Shown here in pieces: positions 2,761 to 35,918 of a stretch of DNA of 64,000 bases (position 1 is the stretch's first letter; each line of letters begins with the position of its first letter). This DNA comes from Escherichia phage allfine. The notes beneath the pieces are model-generated. The model searched no databases. It was not told the DNA's origin and saw only the letters and a list, made by a program, of their open reading frames with translations. The position numbers and the translations under genes were made by a program. The stretch lies in the sequence record MN850633.1; one strand, 5' to 3'.

Positions 2761-3201
2761 ATGAATACAAAAGCATTAGCAGCAAAGTTTAGTTACGGTG
2801 ATACTGTATCACATTCTGAGATGGACACCTTCTTAGGTATTGTGAAGCCAACTTATCAAGGTGACATTGTTAAGTACGAAGATGAAATGAAGGCTTATGC
2901 ACTTACACGTCTAAACCGACTTGAGAAGTTTATTGAAAAGCTTCTTAAAGAAGAGAAGATTTATCTGGTTGCTTCAATGGGTGTTGGTTATCGTGTGGTT
3001 GAACCTAAGCATCAAGCAACTATTGCAAAACGTAAAATGTCTGGTAAGATTGGTCGTGCTTTAAAGCAAGCCACTCAAGCGATTGAGAATGTGAACACTA
3101 TGGCACTTAGTCATCAAGAACGTTCACGACTGATTGAACAGCAAAACCATTTAGCTGCTATGAAAGCTAACATTAACAAGCAACGTAGAAAACCTTTCTA
3201 A
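2761..3201 (+). CDS. hypothetical protein (146 aa)
   Basis: ORF in track, tightly packed with upstream gene. Confidence 0.5.
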   Translation: MNTKALAAKFSYGDTVSHSEMDTFLGIVKPTYQGDIVKYEDEMKAYALTRLNRLEKFIEKLLKEEKIYLVASMGVGYRVVEPKHQATIAKRKMSGKIGRALKQATQAIENVNTMALSHQERSRLIEQQNHLAAMKANINKQRRKPF

Positions 3202-3210
3202 GTTGACTAG

Positions 3211-3236
3211 GAAGCCTCTTCGGAGGCTCCTTTTTA
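3211..3236 (+). terminator. intrinsic terminator
   Basis: Hairpin AGCCTC-TTCG-GAGGCT followed by TTTTT at 3231-3235. Confidence 0.55.
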
Positions 3237-3239
3237 AAA

Positions 3240-3500
3240 GGTCTTTAAACAGGGTCTTTTAATAAGGTAGGATAGGGTGGTGTATGGTTTGGTAAGGTTG
3301 TGTAAGGTAAGGTATGGGTAGTTAATCGGAGCTACATTAAAATTCGATTACATCACTTAAGAGTCTTCTAAGAGGATTTTTAAGTGATGCTCTGTCGGGT
3401 TTGGTCGGGTTTGGTAGGGTGTGGCTCGGTATGGTGTGGTTTGGTGTGGTAAGGTATGGAAGGATGGCAGTAGCCTTATAAAAAATCTGCCAAATAAGCT
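3240..3500 (+). repeat. structured non-coding element, copy 2 (paralog of 1790-2150)
   Basis: Same module order: GGT-periodic tract, conserved box 3313-3363, hairpin 3351-3389, GGT tract, hairpin TGGCAG/CTGCCA 3465-3492 with compensatory change relative to copy 1. Confidence 0.6.
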
Positions 3501-3510
3501 ATAAAATCTG

Positions 3511-3539
3511 TTGACAAGTCAGGTGTTATAGCTTATTTT
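3511..3539 (+). promoter_or_regulatory. candidate sigma70-like promoter TTGACA-17-TATTTT
   Basis: TTGACA at 3511-3516; weak -10 at 3534-3539; RBS GAGG before ATG 3584. Confidence 0.3.
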
Positions 3540-3583
3540 TATACTCAATGTAATACAAAATTTAATATAACTTTGAGGTCATT

Positions 3584-3967
3584 ATGAAAAAGATTTTATT
3601 AGCTGCTGCAATGGTTATGGCAATGAATTTACCAGTCAATGCAACAGAACTCCCAAATGTGGACTTATCAGGTGTTCCAGAAGACACTTGCCAGATTGTT
3701 AAAGGTGTTGCTCTAGCTAATGGTGAGCTACTTAAACCAATCTCTGAAGAGTCTTTGACAGAGATGACTGATAAGGTAACTGACTATCAATATCGCGTTC
3801 TTGCAGAGTATTTCCTGCAATCTGCAAACATTAAAGAGAAACACCATGATGATATTGATGTACAGGCGATGCTCAACCACCGTATCCAGTTTAAAGAAGA
3901 TTTGATGCAAAAAGCTATGTACGGTGTTGAGTATTTCTTAGAAAACAGAAGCTGCACAGGTATTTGA
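3584..3967 (+). CDS. secreted/periplasmic protein with N-terminal signal peptide
   Basis: N-terminus MKKILLAAAMVMAMNLPVNA is signal-peptide-like. Confidence 0.5.
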   Translation: MKKILLAAAMVMAMNLPVNATELPNVDLSGVPEDTCQIVKGVALANGELLKPISEESLTEMTDKVTDYQYRVLAEYFLQSANIKEKHHDDIDVQAMLNHRIQFKEDLMQKAMYGVEYFLENRSCTGI

Positions 3968-3968
3968 T

Positions 3969-4181
3969 ATGGCTCTTAAAAAGTTACATCCCAGAAGCGG
4001 TTATGGTAAGATAATTGACGATACAGATGGCTTTACAGTCTTTACAGTTATCTGTCAAGATGATTCACAGATTGAAAAGGCTCTTGATGATTATCTTAAC
4101 GATGAACGTGAAAAGGTTAGGGCTACAAACATAGATTCATTGATTGACACTTCACGCAAACGGAAGAAGAAAGATGAATGA
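3969..4181 (+). CDS. hypothetical protein (70 aa)
   Basis: ORF in track. Confidence 0.4.
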   Translation: MALKKLHPRSGYGKIIDDTDGFTVFTVICQDDSQIEKALDDYLNDEREKVRATNIDSLIDTSRKRKKKDE

Positions 4182-4473
4182 GGTTTTTGACCCTTATGCC
4201 CCACAAGATGATTGGGAGGCTGATAGAGAGACTGAAATGGAGAGTTATATTTGTCCAATGGATGTAGACGAAATGAGAGGCTTCGTTGCACATCGTTTTA
4301 AGAGAGAGATTAAATCCAGAGGTCTTTCTCAAGAGCAAGTTGCTAAAATTTGTGGTATCTCTCAAGCTCGTGTATCCAACATAATCCACCTCACTGGGAA
4401 TGTTTCTCTTGAGTATATGTTGGAAGTATGTGAAAAATTTGGTGTTAATTTCAATTTAAGGTTGGCAGATTAA
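4174..4473 (+). CDS. helix-turn-helix DNA-binding protein
   Basis: Track ORF 4144-4473, start moved to internal ATG 4174; HTH-like segment LSQEQVAKICGISQARVSNIIHL. Confidence 0.45.
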   Translation: MNEVFDPYAPQDDWEADRETEMESYICPMDVDEMRGFVAHRFKREIKSRGLSQEQVAKICGISQARVSNIIHLTGNVSLEYMLEVCEKFGVNFNLRLAD

Positions 4474-4474
4474 T

Positions 4475-4834
4475 ATGAAACGTGAAAACATTATCCACTC
4501 TGAAAACTTCGCATTAGGCTTTTATGGTGTACCTACTCACCTTGAAAAGTATTATGGTGTAAAGATTCTTTCCAATCTCATTACGGCTTACAAAGATGGT
4601 AAGATTAAGCATACTGAGAAGAAACGTGTCATGGGTTATATGGCTGTAGGTTCAGCAATCTCGAACATTAAGTTGGAAACAACTAGCAGTCAGATTGTAA
4701 AAGACCACTTCATCAAAGAGCTTTACCAAAATCTTGATGGTGTAGATGTTCAGGCTGTTTGGCTGGATGTTGATGGTCATAACTACACAAGTTTTGTTTT
4801 CAAAAACGATGACATTAAGTGCTTGTTCCCATAA
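4475..4834 (+). CDS. hypothetical protein (119 aa)
   Basis: ORF in track. Confidence 0.45.
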   Translation: MKRENIIHSENFALGFYGVPTHLEKYYGVKILSNLITAYKDGKIKHTEKKRVMGYMAVGSAISNIKLETTSSQIVKDHFIKELYQNLDGVDVQAVWLDVDGHNYTSFVFKNDDIKCLFP

Positions 4835-4847
4835 TAGGTGATTAACT

Positions 4848-5363
4848 ATGATTGATATCTTCTTACAAGATGCTCATGCAGATTTCCTTAAAGAGATGCT
4901 TAAAAAGTTTATGGCTTCACAGTATGAGAATGAAGCATCTTTTAAAATAGTTACATGTGGCGATGAAGCTGGTTTTGTTGAGATTGAGCATGAAGGTACT
5001 GGAAAGACTGTTTGTAAGTTACCTGATAGTATGTTCTCTAAAACGTTCTTAACAAAGACTAGTATAAATGTTAAGCTTGTACCACAGATTGAAACATACT
5101 CTGGTACAGATTACCCTAAAGGGTTTAAGTCACTGATGAAGTACTTCTTAGATGACTTTGTGGGTAATCTTCTGAGGGAGGTAAAAGAAAGTCGTACAGT
5201 GTTAACTGTAGAGAACATGGGAGGAACTATAAAGGTTACTTCTGACTGTTTTGTTATGAGCCTCTTCGACTTCGTTCCTAAGAACTTTGATGGTATTCTG
5301 GATGAAGAAGATGACTGTGTAGACTTTATATTGGTTCTTGAGCCAGTTTTTGAGGTTAAATAG
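4848..5363 (+). CDS. hypothetical protein (171 aa)
   Basis: ORF in track. Confidence 0.45.
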   Translation: MIDIFLQDAHADFLKEMLKKFMASQYENEASFKIVTCGDEAGFVEIEHEGTGKTVCKLPDSMFSKTFLTKTSINVKLVPQIETYSGTDYPKGFKSLMKYFLDDFVGNLLREVKESRTVLTVENMGGTIKVTSDCFVMSLFDFVPKNFDGILDEEDDCVDFILVLEPVFEVK

Positions 5364-5624
5364 ATGAAAATTGAACACTGCTATGAGTCTGATGGAACAC
5401 CTATCCGATGCCCACATTGTGGATGTACAGACTTACAAGGTGAAGTTCATGTGATTGTTAATGGTCATATAGCTGAAGAGAGTACAACATGTGTTGGTTG
5501 TGGTGAGCATCTATCATTCTGGGCTTATGGTTCATACCAACCTACACCACACTTAATCTACCATAGCAATAAAGCTGTGAAGAATGTTATCAACTGGTTT
5601 ATTAAGAAAGGATTTACAAAATGA
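5364..5624 (+). CDS. zinc-ribbon protein
   Basis: CPHCGC ... CVGCGEH, two CxxC pairs. Confidence 0.45.
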   Translation: MKIEHCYESDGTPIRCPHCGCTDLQGEVHVIVNGHIAEESTTCVGCGEHLSFWAYGSYQPTPHLIYHSNKAVKNVINWFIKKGFTK

Positions 5625-6166
5625 TTAAATTAATCTTTGCAAGTGGTGAAAATGGTGAGTTTGGTACTCCAACTGGTATGCCGTGGCCTCGACATAAACA
5701 GGACATGCAAGAGTTTAAGAGACTCACTAAAAATAACTTAGTAGTCATGGGTAATGAGACTTTTAAGACTCTGGGTAGTAAACCTTTACCAGAACGTGCA
5801 AACCTCATCTTAACAAATTCTGTACCATACTTAGGCATAGACTTTGGCAAAGATGATGTAATGTATGCTAAAGCCAGTAAAGAGTCATTTGGAGCATTTT
5901 TGAAGTATCTTGATAGCTCTATTGATGAAGATGTCTTTGTAATTGGTGGTGCAGGTATCCTTGTCAATGCTTTACCGTATGCTAGTGTGGTGTTCCATAC
6001 TGTTTTCCATAAAGTTACTGAAGAGGCCACTGTGCATTTACCTTTTGAAAACTTCTTTGAGAAGCTGTATGATAACCGTGTGTTTACAAAGGTACAGTCA
6101 AAACCATCAGAGGATGGTAAAGCAACTTTTGAAATTTATGTTCCACAAGTAAAAGGACACTTTTGA
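5621..6166 (+). CDS. dihydrofolate reductase
   Basis: N-terminal LIFA...MPW signature and length 181 aa typical of DHFR; immediately upstream of thymidylate synthase. Confidence 0.75.
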   Translation: MIKLIFASGENGEFGTPTGMPWPRHKQDMQEFKRLTKNNLVVMGNETFKTLGSKPLPERANLILTNSVPYLGIDFGKDDVMYAKASKESFGAFLKYLDSSIDEDVFVIGGAGILVNALPYASVVFHTVFHKVTEEATVHLPFENFFEKLYDNRVFTKVQSKPSEDGKATFEIYVPQVKGHF

Positions 6167-6167
6167 T

Positions 6168-7067
6168 ATGTCACAAGCAGATACAAGTTACAAAAATATC
6201 CTGAACCATGTTTTATCAGTCGGTGAACTGCGTACTACACGAACTGGGGATGTTATCTCTGCATTTGCTCCACCTAAGTTTCGTTTTGATATGCGAACTG
6301 GTTTCCCGCTCTTAACATCTAAACAGGTGTTTACACGGCAAGTTATTGGGGAAGCTTTATGGTTCCTGAATGGCGAGAATAAACTTGGTGAACTCCGTTA
6401 CCGTACTTGGGGTGAAAATGATGGAGAACGCTGGACTATCTGGTCAGATGATTTTAAACGCTGGTTAAGTTCTAACTATTCTTCTGAACAAGACTGGTTA
6501 GAAGATGCAGGTGGGAGAATCTACGGGGTTCAGTGGAGAAACTTTGAAGGTCATAACGGTTGTGTTGTAGACCAGCTAGAGACCTTAGTAACGAAGATGA
6601 AGGGTGATATCACAGACCGTTACATGCTTGTGAATGCTTGGAATGCAGCAGATATTGCAGCAAACTCAATGGCTCTAGCACCTTGCCATGTTCTGTTTCA
6701 GATTTATATTACTAACGAGGGTGAAGTTGACTTACAGTGGTATCAGCGTTCAGTAGACACCTTTTTAGGACTTCCGTTTAATATTGCATCTTATGGTTTT
6801 ATTCTGGAAGTTCTTTGTAAGATGACTGGATACACTCCACGGTACTTGATAGGTGTCTTTGGAGATACTCAGATTTATCAGAATCATATGAAGCAGGTTT
6901 ATGAACTGATGAACAATGAAGAGTTCCATGCACCAACTTTTGAGATTGGTCTACAACTTAATACTTTAAGTGACCTGAAACATCTTACTGCAAGTGACTT
7001 TATCGGTGGAATTAGTAACTACCAACATGCAGGAAAGATTGAAGCACCTTTGTCAGTAGGCAAGTAG
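6168..7067 (+). CDS. thyA: thymidylate synthase
   Basis: Catalytic-site motifs ALAPCH and RSVDTFLGLPFNIASY. Confidence 0.9.
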   Translation: MSQADTSYKNILNHVLSVGELRTTRTGDVISAFAPPKFRFDMRTGFPLLTSKQVFTRQVIGEALWFLNGENKLGELRYRTWGENDGERWTIWSDDFKRWLSSNYSSEQDWLEDAGGRIYGVQWRNFEGHNGCVVDQLETLVTKMKGDITDRYMLVNAWNAADIAANSMALAPCHVLFQIYITNEGEVDLQWYQRSVDTFLGLPFNIASYGFILEVLCKMTGYTPRYLIGVFGDTQIYQNHMKQVYELMNNEEFHAPTFEIGLQLNTLSDLKHLTASDFIGGISNYQHAGKIEAPLSVGK

Positions 7068-7076
7068 AAACAAAAA

Positions 7077-7096
7077 GGCTCCCGTAAAAAGGAGCC
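7077..7096. terminator. bidirectional intrinsic terminator between convergent gene blocks
   Basis: Hairpin GGCTCC-CGTAAAAA-GGAGCC flanked by A/T runs on both sides. Confidence 0.55.
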
Positions 7097-7104
7097 TTAA
7101 AATT

Positions 7105-7476
7105 TTATTTTTCAGTATTCTTTGTGTTCTTTTCAGTAATAGCTTGGAGGGCTGATACTGATTGAGCCAGATTGTTCACACTATCAGAGAATTTATCAAG
7201 AGTCTTAGTAAGTTTTGCGTTCTCTCCCTTAACATTCTCTAACTGGACTTTCTGGTTCTCCATCCCTAGCTGAAGCAGCCTCATATCAGACTGTAAATCA
7301 CGAATAGCTGAATAATTGCTTTTGGAATAATTATCTAGCTGTTGTAACTTTGTTGTGATAGACACTTCTTGTTTACCATCCGAAACTTGCATGGTGGTAT
7401 ACATCCCAATAACACTAAAAATACCAACTACAATTGCACCAATATTATTTTTAAAAGCTTCCTCCAGCCACTTCAT
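7105..7476 (-). CDS. membrane-anchored coiled-coil protein
   Basis: N-terminal hydrophobic segment IGAIVVGIFSVIGMY then heptad-like region; downstream of tail fibre genes. Confidence 0.4.
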   Translation of the reverse strand: MKWLEEAFKNNIGAIVVGIFSVIGMYTTMQVSDGKQEVSITTKLQQLDNYSKSNYSAIRDLQSDMRLLQLGMENQKVQLENVKGENAKLTKTLDKFSDSVNNLAQSVSALQAITEKNTKNTEK

Positions 7477-7671
7477 TTATTTCTCCCCCTTAAAAGCTTT
7501 TTCTAAGTTATCTACGAACTCATCATCAATAGGTGTGTCTGTCTTACTCGCAAGGTATCTTGCAAGCCTAAAGAACACTTTCTCAATCATGTATTCACTT
7601 AGAAGGGATAAAATGAGTTTCCAGAAGAAGCTACCTAGATTTTTTAGAAGAATTGCTAGGATTGTAGGCAT
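7477..7671 (-). CDS. small membrane protein (64 aa)
   Basis: Hydrophobic N-terminus; abuts next gene. Confidence 0.35.
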   Translation of the reverse strand: MPTILAILLKNLGSFFWKLILSLLSEYMIEKVFFRLARYLASKTDTPIDDEFVDNLEKAFKGEK

Positions 7672-7750
7672 TTAATCACCTCATCAGCCAAGATGGTGAG
7701 AATACCCATAAAGAATATTAACACCATCTTAACAATCAGTCAACAAGGGA

Positions 7751-10090
7751 TTAAGCAGTTCTCACCCAAGCCATTAACTTGTAGAACTGGTTAGTGACAC
7801 TAAATGCTGAACCAGAACCTGTACCACCAGTGTTACCACTAACTGTATGCCTGTGAGCACCAATACCAACACTGTGAGCATGGTTACCAGCAGAAGCAGC
7901 AGTACCACTTACAGAGTGGGTGTGAGCACCGTTAGCATCAGTGTAACCCGGCCCTGAACCAACGTATGCACCACCACCACCAGAATAGTGCTGTGAGTTC
8001 TGACCAATCCACGAAATGGAATGGTTGTGGTTACCAGCAGATGAAGTAGAGCCACTTACAGAGTGTGTGTGAGCACCAGTCGTGTTAGTGTTTTTTGTTC
8101 CGTAGTCAAACGATGAGGTAGTCGCAGAAAAACTGTGAGTGTGTGAAGGTAAGTTACCAACAGCTAACGTCACAGAGTCTGAACCACCAGTTGTAGCAAC
8201 ATCTGAACCGTTTGCTGCTGCAATTCTGATAGTTCTACCAACACCATTGTTCAGATACGTCCAAGTTAGACCAGGCAGTGCTGTATTAGGGTCAACATTA
8301 CTGTTAAACCATGTCACAATACCCACTGGGTAGATTTTATTAAGGTCTGTAGAGTCACTTACCGCCTGTGCAATCTTCTGGTCAGTTTCTGCTTTAGTGT
8401 ATGCACCAAGCTCTGAAGGGGTTGGTTTCTGAGCTTCAGTGTAAACCTTAGACCATTCAACCTCAAAGCCAAGTGTGTCTCTGGCTGACCTGTACCACAT
8501 CCCACCATTTTTCGATTCAAATCTTAATTGTGCAGATGGTGTTAGGGCTTTCGCATTAGAGGCCATGTGCAAGACTAAACGGTTTTGCCCGCTAGATTTT
8601 GTCTCAAGATAGATTCCTGAGGGTTGGTCCCAAGCCACACCACCAGCAGCCTCGGTCTTCGAAGCTCTGAATGCTGACCAGAAATACTTTGAATCGGCTT
8701 CGGCTTTACCGTAATACCTTGCATCAAAGTTTGTGAAGTTGCTAGGTTGTACTTGACCACCAATTACTAAGGTTGCATTAATTGCTACTTCGGAACCAAT
8801 GCTTAGGGTTTTACCAGTTTTATAGTTATATACATTAAGAGTGTCACTCTCACTGTTATTACCAACATACCACCTATTCGTTCCATCATAGTCCTTACCT
8901 CTAATGTAAAGTGCTGCGGTTGTCTTTCCTTGTAACGTAAGAGCTTCACCATCAGTGTTAATAACCTGCTTTGCAGTGAACGTGTTACTTGCATTAGTTC
9001 TTGCAATTGTACTTAATGTTGCTGCTGGAATGTATCTAGAGTCAATGTTAGTCCAATCTGAAGGTTGAACTTGACCAGTGATTTTTAGTGTTGTATTGAT
9101 AGCGGCATTTGAACCAATAGTGAGTTTACCACCAGTTTTGTAATTCTCTAGTGATACATCATCACCGCCGTTGGCGCATCCAACATACCACCTGTTAGCA
9201 CCAGAAGAGTCAATAGCCTTGATGTACAATGGCTGGCTAACTGATGAATTTTGCAACCTTAACACTTCACCATCACGTTTAATTGTGTTAAAGCCATTAA
9301 ACACATTTGCACCACTAAAGGTATTATTACCAGTTAACTGTGCAAATCTCTGATTAGCTGCTGTCTGAGTAAAATATCTAGCATCTAAGTTAGAGAAGTC
9401 AGAGGGTTGAACTTGACCAGTAATAGCAAGGGTTTTATTAATAGCAACACTTGTGCCTAGAGTAATGGTTGAACCTTGTTCACTCTCAATTTGAACATCA
9501 CGGCTGCCTTTAATTAGGTTCCCGATAGCCCAAACTTTTTCATTACTAGCATCCCTAGCTACAACAGCAGTGTATGCCTCACTAGCACTTGCAGGGTTTC
9601 TTAGTGTTAGAATCTCTCCATTTGCTGTAATAGTCTGCTTGACGTTAAACGTGTTTGAGTTAGCCAACCTTGCATACCTTGCATCATTCTCTTCATTAGT
9701 TCTCATCCCAAGTTCATTAGGGCTTGGCTTATTCAAAGTATGGTAAACAGTTGCTGACCTTGAAGCATCTGCAATAGTTAGTTTAAGGCCATTTGCGTTG
9801 ATTTTAAAAGACTTTAAAACATCCCCCATAGTAATCTCAGAAGAGCCTGTAGGGTCAAATACTGCCTTACCACCATAAAGTAACTTGACAATTCCTAAGT
9901 CACCCGTCATAGTGCTACCAGCAATCTGGACAAATCTTTCTAGTTTAAAAGATGCTAAGAAGTCTTGATAGGTCATTCGACGGTCTTCATCACCCAGCAT
10001 TTCAGGTCTCTTTTTAACCCTGACATGAAGAAGGTCGTCTGAACGAATTGTATCAATTGAGTTTAATTCACTCAACTTGTAATCTGCCAT
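7751..10090 (-). CDS. tail fibre protein with His-x-His repeat tip
   Basis: 779 aa; C-terminal repeats GAHTHSVSG / NHNHS / NHAHS like metal-binding HxH tips of myovirus fibres. Confidence 0.7.
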
Positions 10091-10136
10091 TATAAATTTT
10101 CCTCTTAAAAGGGGCTATAAAGCCCCTGTAAAGAAA

Positions 10137-11285
10137 TTAAGCTGTTCTCTGCCATACATACAATACGAAGGATGGCTGTTCAACGCTAAATGCTTGACCA
10201 GAACCAGTTGTGCCAGTTGTGCCAGAGTGCGAATGCTCACCTGCTCCGGTTACTGTTACTGTTGCTGAGTGGTTGTGGGAGCCAATTGCAACAGAATGAC
10301 TGTGAGCACCAATACCAACTGTGTGATTATGCGCACCAATTGCTACAGAGTGAGTGTGGTTGTTAGCTGTTGTCAGCGTAGCTCTTGGGTCATAGCTTGC
10401 CCCCTCAACTGATAAACCTCTCCAACCACCATCAGCATAACCACGATTAATGAATGTTGTTTGTGTTAAACCAGCAGCACTGGTTGTTCTGTTACCATAG
10501 TCATAAGTAGATACAGTCTTTGTTCCATAGTCAAACGTTGTAGTCCCTTTAGTACCGTAGTCAAAAGCACTGATAGAGGCCGTTGCACCGTGTGTGTGAC
10601 CACCACCAGTGACGTATACTGAGTGAGTATGTGCAGGAATGTTGTTAACTGTCAGTGCAGTAGTCTGCGAACCAAACGTTGAGCCAACTGGCCTAGAAGC
10701 ACTATCATAACCTACAAGTGCTCTTCCTTTTGAAACTAACTCCCAAGTACCTCCACAAATTAAATATGTAGAAGGGTTTGCAGGATTCATAGAGAGATGG
10801 ATAGTACCTACTGGATAAGAAGCCTGAACAGCCTTGTACAAGTTATTTACTGCTCTTGCTGTAGCATACTTATCTGCATCCTCGTTATAAAGGTTAGATG
10901 TCACCCAGTTCTGAACATTACTTAACCCAACCTGTGCCTTAGTGGTATTGTGTGGGTTGCTCTTATCATCAATATGTTGTTGAATAAGATTATTAACCTC
11001 TTCTGAAGACATAATCTGTAGATTTGCTCTTGCCTCAGCTACATTAACAATGTCTGATAAGTTATTTTCAGCAACTAACTGGAGAGCATTAATAACGTTA
11101 TCTAGACCAATTTGTGTCTTAGTAACACCATGTGGGTTATTTCTTAGGCTTGAGTGTGGAGCAAGTAATTGCTCAAGAGTACATCTCTTATCCTCGATAC
11201 CCTGTTTAAGATGGAAGATATCACTAAGGTCAATTGGTAAGGCTGCTTGAGGCAAGGCACTGATTTGAATTTCACCTACTGCCAT
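10137..11285 (-). CDS. tail fibre protein (second), same HxH tip type
   Basis: 382 aa; C-terminal HTHS / HNHT / HSHS repeats and ending similar to 7751-10090. Confidence 0.65.
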   Translation of the reverse strand: MAVGEIQISALPQAALPIDLSDIFHLKQGIEDKRCTLEQLLAPHSSLRNNPHGVTKTQIGLDNVINALQLVAENNLSDIVNVAEARANLQIMSSEEVNNLIQQHIDDKSNPHNTTKAQVGLSNVQNWVTSNLYNEDADKYATARAVNNLYKAVQASYPVGTIHLSMNPANPSTYLICGGTWELVSKGRALVGYDSASRPVGSTFGSQTTALTVNNIPAHTHSVYVTGGGHTHGATASISAFDYGTKGTTTFDYGTKTVSTYDYGNRTTSAAGLTQTTFINRGYADGGWRGLSVEGASYDPRATLTTANNHTHSVAIGAHNHTVGIGAHSHSVAIGSHNHSATVTVTGAGEHSHSGTTGTTGSGQAFSVEQPSFVLYVWQRTA

Positions 11286-11287
11286 TA

Positions 11288-19303
<8,016 letters not shown>

Positions 19304-35841: not shown

Positions 35842-35918
35842 TGGTCTCTGTTGGAGGACTTGAACCTCCGGCCTTACCGCCCCAAACGGAACGCTCTACC
35901 AAGCTGAGCTAAACAGAG
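35842..35918 (-). tRNA. tRNA-Pro (anticodon UGG)
   Basis: T-arm GGAGG-ACTTGAA-CCTCC, acceptor CTCTGTT/AACAGAG exact, loop UUUGGGG. Confidence 0.55.

Follow-up and report, generated by a model that had tools for sequence, protein, structure and literature searches.

Two adjacent genes in the 64-kb stretch of DNA analysed here (the window) very probably encode the short and the long baseplate fibre of a Felixounavirus virion, each bearing at its C-terminal end a receptor-binding tip of the T4 gp37 type, a reading to which we assign a probability of about 0.88. It rests on the open reading frames (ORFs) themselves and the H-x-H motifs clustered within them, on homology to the crystallized T4 gp37 tip (2XGF), on orthologs in conserved gene order in Bas63, Sf14 and Felix O1, and on how conservation is distributed along the proteins among relatives. 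We refer to the two products as STF and LTF. The window is 98.3% identical at the DNA level to Escherichia phage vB_EcoM_LNA6, and represents 64 kb of a Felixounavirus (Ounavirinae) genome of approximately 88 kb. The STF/LTF pair, its homology to T4 gp37 and the di-histidine counts are already known from publications on VpaE1 (2015), Sf14 (2025) and the Bas63 cryo-EM structure (2025), and with the published orthologs 98% (STF) and 70% (LTF) identical to the proteins described here, the finding adds little beyond a correct annotation.

Both reading frames have exactly the ends and lengths assigned to them in an earlier, sequence-only reading of this DNA (Table 1). The STF gene lies upstream of the LTF gene, not downstream, and the two are separated by 46 nt. 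The 100-aa protein encoded next to STF equals in length and position Bas63 gp25, the gp9-like LTF platform, a role known from cryo-EM of Bas63 (PMC12609058), and the wedge proteins of 285 and 489 residues match Bas63 gp24 and gp23 exactly in size. Downstream of the LTF gene are two ORFs for membrane proteins of 64 and 123 aa. This order, which runs from the wedge genes through the 100-aa platform, STF, LTF and the two small membrane proteins to a convergent thyA, is the same in all eight genomes compared, namely Bas63, JH2, FO1a, KhF2, Sf15, Mijalis, DaR-2019b and ULIM3. The STF and LTF genes are both kept in 8 of 8 Felixounavirus and Mooglevirus genomes examined, and an ortholog of STF is also found in Kolesnikvirus.

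Table 1. Features of the fibre locus, with positions in the window.
Feature	Position (strand)	Basis or identifying property
STF gene, 382 aa; ortholog of Bas63 gp26, Sf14 gp52, VpaE1 gp74	10137..11285 (-)	ORF, identity, PHROGs
STF 1-142, predicted N-terminal baseplate-binding region and short shaft	10860..11285 (-)	mean pairwise identity 84.7% in 10 Ounavirinae
STF 143-214, collar domain (T4 gp10 C-terminal / gp37 collar type)	10644..10859 (-)	Pfam Gp10_C, PDB
STF 215-270, descending needle strand	10476..10643 (-)	H-x-H at 219, 230; aligned to T4 gp37 descending needle in 2XGF
STF 271-306, distal hypervariable segment, presumed head (receptor-contact) domain	10368..10475 (-)	boundaries approximate
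STF 307-356, ascending needle strand	10218..10367 (-)	H-x-H at 310, 319, 328, 337, 351
STF 357-382 and stop, Gly-rich linker and conserved C-terminal strand ...GSGQAFSVEQPSFVLYVWQRTA	10137..10217 (-)	common to LTF
LTF gene, 779 aa; ortholog of Bas63 gp27, Sf14 gp53, VpaE1 gp75	7751..10090 (-)	ORF, identity, PHROGs
LTF 1-140, predicted N-terminal baseplate-binding domain	9671..10090 (-)	mean identity 88.6% in 9-phage panel
LTF 141-470, three tandem ~106-114-aa shaft repeats (Pfam gp37_trimer)	8681..9670 (-)	PF20744, E 5.6e-55, 3 stretches
LTF 471-580, exchangeable cassette (Pfam gp37_C) and conserved linker	8351..8680 (-)	PF12604, E 2e-13
LTF 581-645, collar domain	8156..8350 (-)	aligns with STF collar; 86.5% identity in panel
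LTF 646-692, descending needle strand	8015..8155 (-)	H-x-H at 650, 674, 688; one FDYGTK
LTF 693-720, distal hypervariable segment, presumed head (receptor-contact) domain	7931..8014 (-)	boundaries approximate
LTF 721-760, ascending needle strand	7811..7930 (-)	H-x-H at 723, 737, 746
LTF 761-779 and stop, conserved C-terminal strand	7751..7810 (-)	88% identity in panel; common to STF
100-aa protein, directly upstream of STF gene	11288..11590 (-)	phrog_4141, E 3e-62; synteny with bas63_0025
Baseplate wedge genes, 285 aa 'wedge 1' and 489 aa Baseplate_J 'wedge 2'; predicted fibre attachment carriers	11590..13919 (-)	Pfam, PHROGs, synteny

LTF matches phrog_4277 ('tail fiber protein') from end to end (1273 bits) and is 70.4% identical to Bas63 gp27. 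STF is 100% identical to the Alf5 protein and 98.2% identical to Bas63 gp26; it matches phrog_2097, also annotated 'tail fiber protein' (E 1e-127), and its PHROGs matches are to tail-fibre families only. The cryo-EM study of Bas63 (Sci Adv 2025) described gp26 as an STF of 430 Å and gp27 as an LTF of 630 Å, both with collar-needle-head tips, retracted along the sheath and attached to the baseplate at separate sites, and counted seven di-histidine motifs in STF and six in LTF (PMC12609058). By analogy with these orthologs, the proteins of the window are expected to reside on the virion as fibres of such lengths and in the same retracted posture. The earlier proposal of two tail fibres with the same tip architecture and different shafts therefore corresponds to the Bas63 STF and LTF. 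Two retracted fibres, gp52 and gp53, have likewise been described in the Mooglevirus Sf14 (PMC11821841), and VpaE1 gp74 and gp75 have gp37-like C-termini and appear in a figure that shows which virion proteins mass spectrometry identified (PMC4690856); these are the same two-fibre pair as STF and LTF. Our panel alignments include the Mooglevirus Sf15, a close relative, rather than Sf14 itself, and the fibres of Sf15 and Mijalis are about 53-67% identical to the window proteins and have other distal segments.

Bas63 (Escherichia phage JohannRWettstein) resembles the window in genus, gene order, and the counts and positions of H-x-H motifs (7 and 6). STF is 382 aa long in both, and LTF has 779 aa in the window versus 784 in Bas63. 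The N-terminus, collar and C-terminus of LTF are 95-100% identical between the two phages, whereas identity falls to 27-67% in the shaft repeats and cassette (approximately residues 141-553) and to about 80% in the tip's distal segment; the window carries the LNA6 allele of LTF (98.6% identity to the LNA6 protein). Bas63 also has an extra His by the head (HHxH), where the window has NHNH. The main text of the PhageMaP preprint on Bas63 contains no fibre-specific content.

That both proteins end in clustered H-x-H repeats is borne out by the counts. LTF has six such motifs (650 HTHS, 674 HTHS, 688 HNHS, 723 HTHS, 737 HAHS and 746 HRHT), which contain 12 of its 16 histidines, and STF has seven (219 HTHS, 230 HTHG, 310 HTHS, 319 HNHT, 328 HSHS, 337 HNHS and 351 HSHS), containing 14 of its 20; in both proteins they are confined to the last 130-165 residues or so. 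Shuffled versions of LTF and STF held on average 0.31 and 1.0 motifs, respectively, and the observed count was reached in 0 of 20,000 shuffles for each. The motifs are laid out around a central variable segment as 3+3 in LTF versus 2+5 in STF. STF terminates in GSGQAFSVEQPSFVLYVWQRTA, and the similar final segment noticed earlier, AFSV...W-RTA, is indeed common to both proteins. An alignment of the two tips, which the sequence-only reading had suggested as a check, pairs LTF 587-779 with STF 157-382 at 33% identity (BLASTP, E 1e-16), indicating that the tips are homologous and share an architecture but are far from identical. At the other end of the proteins, EDRRMT in LTF corresponds to EDKRCT in STF.

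The tips had been likened to the metal-coordinating tips found on long fibres of myoviruses, and both proteins do match the crystal structure of the T4 gp37 tip (2XGF) by sequence. LTF 645-758 aligns to residues 94-218 of the chain (E 7.2e-18; family profile 4.2e-17), and STF 146-352 to residues 18-229 of 242 (E 3.2e-14; family profile 1.1e-27). In alignments with T4 gp37 and lambda Stf the H-x-H motifs fall in register, LTF having six of T4's seven and STF five. The LTF motifs at 650, 674 and 688 align to T4 H883, H915 and H929, and those at 723, 737 and 746 to H966, H980 and H989; T4's last motif, at H998, is absent from LTF. In STF, 219 corresponds to 883 and 310, 319, 328 and 337 to 966, 980, 989 and 998, while FDYG repeats stand in place of T4's second and third descending motifs and two extra motifs of its own (230 and 351) are added. 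The ascending-strand stretch HSVAIGAHNHTVGIGAHSHSVAIGSHNHS of STF aligns to its T4 gp37 counterpart in 2XGF. The likeness to T4 gp37 and lambda Stf further includes the collar-needle-head-needle topology at the sequence level, and the FDYGTK and (S/A)(V/F)(G/A)IGAH-x-H repeats. The Felixounavirus tips differ in having a longer, Gly-rich C-terminal extension (...GTGSG-AFSV...W-RTA, compared with ...NIAFNYIVRLA in T4), and in that one gene encodes the whole fibre that carries them, whereas the T4 tip terminates a fibre made of four proteins.

The N-terminal region of STF contains two NPH-x-TK-x-Q(I/V)GL-x-NV motifs, at residues 50 and 110. The STF collar is recognized by Pfam Gp10_C (PF21939) above the gathering threshold (E 1.6e-17, 65.2 bits versus a cutoff of 27) and matches the gp10 entries 2FKK and 5HX2 in the PDB as well as 2XGF from residue 18 onward; the LTF collar falls just under the same cutoff (E 7e-5, 24.2 bits). 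In the descending strand of STF there are three FDYG(T/N)(K/R) repeats (241-266). Each shaft repeat of LTF consists of a variable body and a conserved linker, (I/V)TGQVQPS(D/N)(F/W)(S/T)N(L/I/F)D(A/S)RY; the repeats are 38-49% identical to one another (E 1e-23 to 1e-29), with a period of 318/342 nt in the DNA, and in the panel their bodies are 36-39% identical versus 73-86% for the linkers. A profile search of the PDB returned a weak match of this shaft to the T7 gp17 fibre (4A0T/4A0U). Within the cassette that follows, residues 483-574 show homology to the S' fibre of phage Mu (8JU3, E 1.9e-17; profile 2.4e-19), to P2 gpH and to Pfam gp37_C. In LTF this Mu S'-like module is internal, followed by collar and needle; in JH2/KhF2 and in Mijalis/DaR-2019b its place is taken by modules that are unrelated or longer. 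The mean identity of the cassette region in the panel is 25.9%.

Variation among relatives is concentrated at the presumed heads. The distal segments have mean pairwise identities of only 21.8% in STF (271-306, with many indels, at the position of the head turn of T4 gp37) and 16.1% in LTF (693-720, the lowest value in the protein), that is 16-22% compared with 85-89% for the N-termini; the collars and C-terminal strands are also conserved (74.2% for STF 357-382). A hypervariable distal segment between H-x-H clusters, in otherwise conserved surroundings, fits a receptor-binding head, whose boundaries, set from alignment and variability, are approximate. The PDB copy searched held no identical or near-identical fibre chain. 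Single-sequence AlphaFold2 gave a pLDDT of 33.9 and a pTM of 0.13 for STF 143-382, modelled as one chain of a presumed intertwined trimer. For the Bas63 orthologs, the collar, needle and head fold was derived from low-resolution density together with AlphaFold models, and the authors considered the fibre density unsuitable for modelling rotamers (PMC12609058).

These comparisons suggest how the fibres may be built. Each would be a homotrimer whose chains pass through the collar, run down a thin needle, turn at a small distal head, return up the needle and end in the collar, with H-x-H motifs on both the descending and the ascending strands. In T4 gp37, also a homotrimer, Fe is octahedrally coordinated by six histidines per H-x-H layer (as reported in PMC12609058). 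By homology, each motif in the STF and LTF tips would supply six histidines, drawn from the three chains, for the octahedral coordination of one metal ion (Fe), and such sites, six in LTF and seven in STF, would staple the six-stranded needle. LTF has in addition its three tandem beta-helix repeats and the exchangeable Mu S-like cassette, joined by conserved linkers. The two fibres are alike at their ends and unlike in the middle. In Bas63 the N-terminal end of STF is located on domain 2 of wedge-2A and that of LTF attaches to the gp9-like platform (PMC12609058); the window proteins probably bind likewise, STF to wedge-2 and LTF to the 100-aa protein encoded just upstream. The hypervariable distal segments would set receptor specificity, the receptors most likely being LPS-core sugars in this group of phages.

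Dual receptor specificity, as the sequence-only reading put it, is plausible given distal segments that are unrelated between the two tips and hypervariable among relatives in each. A stronger version, in which the fibres bind different receptors in parallel and either can trigger infection, thereby broadening host range, stands against a T4-like scheme in which LTF first binds reversibly and STF then commits the phage. Parallel use draws support, besides the unrelated distal segments, from differences between STF and T4 gp12. STF is like gp12 in being called a short tail fibre and in attaching to the baseplate wedge, but gp12 is tucked under the baseplate, and the 430-Å STF of Bas63 is folded up along the sheath, where both of its fibres are retracted. 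No T4 gp12 chain (1H6W, 1OCY or baseplate entries) was among the PDB matches of STF at E<=0.01, by sequence or by profile, and we rejected membership of the gp12 family on this ground. The Sf14 authors, moreover, name both proteins 'long tail fibers' (PMC11821841). Against parallel use, the two Bas63 fibres have distinct baseplate attachment sites, and retention of both genes together in all eight genomes suggests that both are needed rather than being alternatives. On balance we regard independent triggering by either fibre as possible but rather doubtful.

The smaller protein, which the sequence-only reading also considered as a shortened paralog, is very unlikely to derive from a recent duplication within this genome, whether by truncation of the long gene or the reverse, which would leave a redundant tip of the same specificity. 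The adjacency of the genes and their common N-terminal (EDKRCT/EDRRMT) and C-terminal features would be expected of such an event. The tips are, however, just 33-35% identical, the LTF needle shares more identity with T4 gp37 (46%) and lambda Stf (49%) than with its neighbour STF (35%), the number and layout of H-x-H motifs differ, and the pair is conserved in the Felixounavirus and Mooglevirus genomes examined, with the STF ortholog present in Kolesnikvirus as well. Any duplication was therefore ancient, the tips having since been exchanged or diverged; recent tandem duplication, rejected on the tip identities, appears very improbable. Still less credible is a role of the 382-aa protein as a tail-fibre chaperone or assembly factor, an outcome that the sequence-only reading had named as refuting its interpretation. 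Fibre genes often precede chaperone genes (T4 gp38 and lambda Tfa are examples), and the window shows no other evident chaperone; yet the 382-aa gene is located upstream, not downstream, of the gene for the long fibre, its product has a predicted baseplate-binding N-terminus and a complete tip of collar, needle and head with homology to 2XGF, and it matches only fibre families. Published virion data on its orthologs refute the chaperone role: the 98%-identical one is seen as a 430-Å fibre on the Bas63 baseplate (PMC12609058), and VpaE1 gp74 is included in the mass-spectrometry figure of virion proteins (PMC4690856).

T4 gp37 requires the chaperones gp38 and gp57A (PMC3004832), and in T4 and lambda a gp38 or Tfa gene adjoins the fibre gene, whereas none is adjacent in the window. 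A tblastn search of the 64-kb window for T4 gp38 and lambda Tfa homologs gave nothing below E 0.17, and a crude screen by composition for small gp57A-like proteins, devoid of aromatics, Cys and Pro, yielded no credible candidate. No 'tail fiber assembly' gene is annotated in the 43.6 kb inspected of the relative LinBro, which has only tail (tape-measure) assembly chaperones, and for Sf14 no homolog of the Mu U/U' chaperone was reported (PMC11821841). The failure to detect a gp38/Tfa homolog in the window suggests that folding may differ from that of T4. The C-terminal extension (Gly-rich linker and AFSV...W-RTA strand) is lineage-specific, occurring in both fibres and absent from T4 gp37 and lambda Stf. 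It is conceivable, though we think it unlikely, that the gp37-type needle tips of Ounavirinae fold and trimerise without a chaperone of the gp38/Tfa/Mu-U type, with this extension acting as a built-in trimerisation clamp.

STF and LTF serve a Felix O1-like coliphage in recognizing its host, and the Felix O1-like group is used in Salmonella diagnostics and phage-therapy collections. The allele-variable distal head segments, the bodies of the shaft repeats and the cassette at LTF 471-555 are obvious targets for host-range engineering. Natural alleles of STF exist with 7 versus 9 H-x-H layers, and comparing them could show how many metal sites a needle requires.

The sequence-only reading had proposed two consecutive tail-fibre genes with a common, metal-coordinating type of His-x-His repeat tip. 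The coordinates and lengths of both open reading frames proved exact (see table), with a spacing of 46 nt. The LTF (long tail fibre, ortholog of gp27 of Escherichia phage Bas63) has six H-x-H motifs (650 HTHS, 674 HTHS, 688 HNHS, 723 HTHS, 737 HAHS and 746 HRHT), and the STF (short tail fibre, ortholog of Bas63 gp26), which ends in GSGQAFSVEQPSFVLYVWQRTA, has seven (219 HTHS, 230 HTHG, 310 HTHS, 319 HNHT, 328 HSHS, 337 HNHS and 351 HSHS). These motifs contain 12 of the 16 LTF histidines and 14 of the 20 in the STF. The mean count after shuffling was 0.31 for the LTF and 1.0 for the STF (20,000 permutations of each), and none of the permuted sequences reached the observed number. The last ~195 residues of the LTF and the last ~225 of the STF share 33% identity (BLASTP, E 1e-16), so the tips have a common architecture but are not the same in sequence. 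The N-termini have no significant similarity by BLAST (E 0.30); a short N-terminal element common to both, EDKRCT in the STF and EDRRMT in the LTF, was pointed out by the authors of the Sf14 study (PMC11821841).

Positions of features in the window
Feature	Position	Strand	Remarks
Bidirectional hairpin terminator	7075-7098		strong; AAGGCTCCC...GGGAGCCTT; separates the 3' end of the fibre/membrane-protein operon from convergent thyA
Two small membrane-protein ORFs	7105-7671	minus	directly 3' of the LTF gene
LTF ORF	7751-10090	minus	779 aa
Exchangeable LTF cassette	8426-8680		residues 471-555
Hairpin in the STF stop-LTF start gap	~10100-10125	minus	GGGGCT-TTAT-AGCCCC then TTTT
STF ORF	10137-11285	minus	382 aa
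STF segment differing from JH2	10476-10643		residues 215-270
25 clustered tRNA genes	31005-35918	minus	

Our analysis shows that both proteins are tail fibres, with a domain layout that ends in a tip homologous to that of T4, and with hypervariable distal segments. The supposed likeness to myovirus long-fibre tips is borne out by sequence matches of both fibres to the crystal structure of the T4 gp37 receptor-binding tip (PDB 2XGF). LTF residues 645-758 match it directly (E 7.2e-18), and STF residues 146-352 match chain positions 18-229 of 242, almost the whole crystallised fragment (E 3.2e-14, or 1.1e-27 with a profile of the Ounavirinae ortholog panel). STF residues 143-221 form a collar-type domain matching the T4 gp10 C-terminus (Pfam Gp10_C, 65 bits; PDB 2FKK/5HX2); the LTF collar scores slightly below the Pfam threshold, yet can be aligned with that of the STF.

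The motif register was read from an alignment of both fibres with T4 gp37 and lambda Stf. The six LTF motifs align with T4 H883, 915 and 929 on the descending strand and 966, 980 and 989 on the ascending strand, while the repeat bearing T4 H998 is absent. In the STF, H219 corresponds to T4 H883 and motifs 310, 319, 328 and 337 to 966, 980, 989 and 998, but a third FDYG(T/N)(K/R) repeat occupies the positions of 915 and 929, and motifs 230 and 351 have no T4 counterpart. Recent duplication of one fibre gene into the other is very unlikely: the LTF needle has 35% identity to the neighbouring STF, against 46% to T4 gp37 and 49% to lambda Stf, which indicates that the tips are old or horizontally acquired paralogs. 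Single-sequence AlphaFold2 gave an unusable model of the STF tip (pLDDT 33.9), and the PDB copy searched held no deposited chain for these fibres.

Mean pairwise identities were calculated for panels of 10 genomes (STF) and nine genomes (LTF). For the STF and LTF, respectively, they are 85% and 89% in the N-terminus, 76% and 87% in the collar, 74% and 88% in the C-terminal strand, and 22% and 16% in the segment between the H-x-H clusters, which in both alignments also has many indels and lies at the position of the turn of T4 gp37, in its receptor-contacting head. STF alleles differ in their H-x-H layers, with seven in the type found in the window, Bas63 and Alf5 and nine in the JH2 type (locus 3201-4370); in the former an extra FDYG repeat replaces two descending-strand motifs. 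The Erwinia Kolesnikvirus ortholog lacks FDYGTK repeats entirely.

Upstream of its tip the LTF has three tandem repeats of ~106-114 aa (Pfam gp37_trimer, E 5.6e-55; 38-49% mutual identity; DNA period 318/342 nt), followed by a region (471-580) with homology to Pfam gp37_C and to the S' fibre of phage Mu (8JU3, E 1.9e-17). In the nine-genome panel the repeat bodies (36-39%) and the cassette 471-555 (26%) are also highly variable and the inter-module linkers are conserved (73-86%), a layout that lends itself to the swapping of modules by recombination. A Mu-S/gp37_C-like cassette occurs in the window, Bas63, FO1a, Sf15 and ULIM3; it is replaced outright by a different sequence type in JH2 and KhF2 and by a version ~60 aa longer in Mijalis and DaR-2019b. 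The cassette may serve as an additional site of host contact away from the fibre end; the Sf14 authors speculate likewise on an internal C24-like domain of gp52 (PMC11821841).

At the DNA level the region shares 98.3% identity with Escherichia phage vB_EcoM_LNA6; its matches number 259 phage records, nearly all Felix O1-like, from Escherichia, Salmonella, Shigella and Citrobacter hosts. The minus-strand order is Baseplate_J wedge (489 aa), wedge (285 aa), a 100-aa protein, STF, LTF, and 64-aa and 123-aa membrane proteins, convergent with thyA and dhfr. This order is kept in Bas63 (JohannRWettstein), JH2, FO1a (Felix O1 species), KhF2, ULIM3 and DaR-2019b, and also in the Moogleviruses Sf15 and Mijalis. 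Erwinia phage Panisse (Kolesnikvirus, locus 3601-8271) keeps an STF ortholog (50% identity), and in place of the single LTF gene has a set whose annotations read proximal tail-fibre subunit, tail fibre and large structural protein; within the subfamily the STF is thus the better conserved of the two fibres.

The STF shares 100% identity with the Alf5 protein and 98.2% with Bas63 gp26; for the LTF the values are 70.4% with Bas63 gp27 and 98.6% with the LNA6 protein. Alleles of the pair, exact or nearly so, have been published and structurally described; the initial observation is confirmed and its interpretation supported, in agreement with the published description. The tail-fibre proteins gp74 and gp75 of VpaE1 are included in a figure that shows the virion proteins detected by mass spectrometry; their N-termini are conserved, whereas their C-termini vary and in both cases have homology to the T4 gp37 adhesin (PMC4690856). 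Sf14 retracts two fibre sets along its sheath, gp52 (391 aa, 430 A) and gp53 (792 aa, 630 A) (PMC11821841). Cryo-EM of Bas63 placed gp26, the short fibre, on wedge-2A domain 2 and gp27, the long fibre, on the gp9-like platform gp25, and described the tips and LTF beta-helix repeats as highly variable across the genus (PMC12609058). The GenBank record of Bas63 (MZ501086, 3750-7299) reverses this assignment: 'long tail fiber protein' is its label for the product of 382 aa, and that of 784 aa is called 'tail fiber protein'; in many related records the two genes have only generic names or are unannotated.

By comparison with these orthologs, each fibre would attach by its N-terminus to its own distinct baseplate site and be stowed along the sheath. 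Homology to T4 suggests that each H-x-H layer may hold one metal ion through six histidines from three chains, that these layers would stiffen the very thin needle, and that the distal head is the probable receptor binder. We consider it rather unlikely that the two fibres act in parallel on different epitopes, as opposed to a T4-like scheme in which the LTF senses first and the STF commits.

The tips may fold differently from that of T4 gp37, which needs both gp38 and gp57A as chaperones (PMC3004832); no gp38/Tfa homolog or gp57A-like protein was found within the 64-kb window. Sf14 likewise has no Mu-type chaperone homolog (PMC11821841). Both Felixounavirus tips differ from T4 gp37 and lambda Stf in a longer Gly-rich C-terminal extension, which, speculatively, could be relevant to folding. 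The membrane proteins 3' of the LTF gene might conceivably take part in fibre assembly. The 64-aa protein belongs to phrog_402, of unknown function. The 123-aa protein (phrog_4038) has a weak DivIC-like match and an N-terminal hydrophobic, TM-like segment, and is annotated as 'putative holin' in Sf15 and Mijalis; its Sf14 equivalent was detected in virions and called 'holin or lysozyme' (PMC11821841).

The hairpin in the STF-LTF gap lies just 5' of the LTF ribosome-binding site and could attenuate LTF expression relative to STF. A simple scan did not call it as a terminator (only 4 T); the KhF2 record has a rho-independent terminator annotated at this position. Elsewhere in the window, the tRNA genes cover most amino acids, with two each for Met, Gln, Lys and Ser and three for Leu; large tRNA sets have been reported in Felix O1-like phages, with 22 in VpaE1 (PMC4690856).
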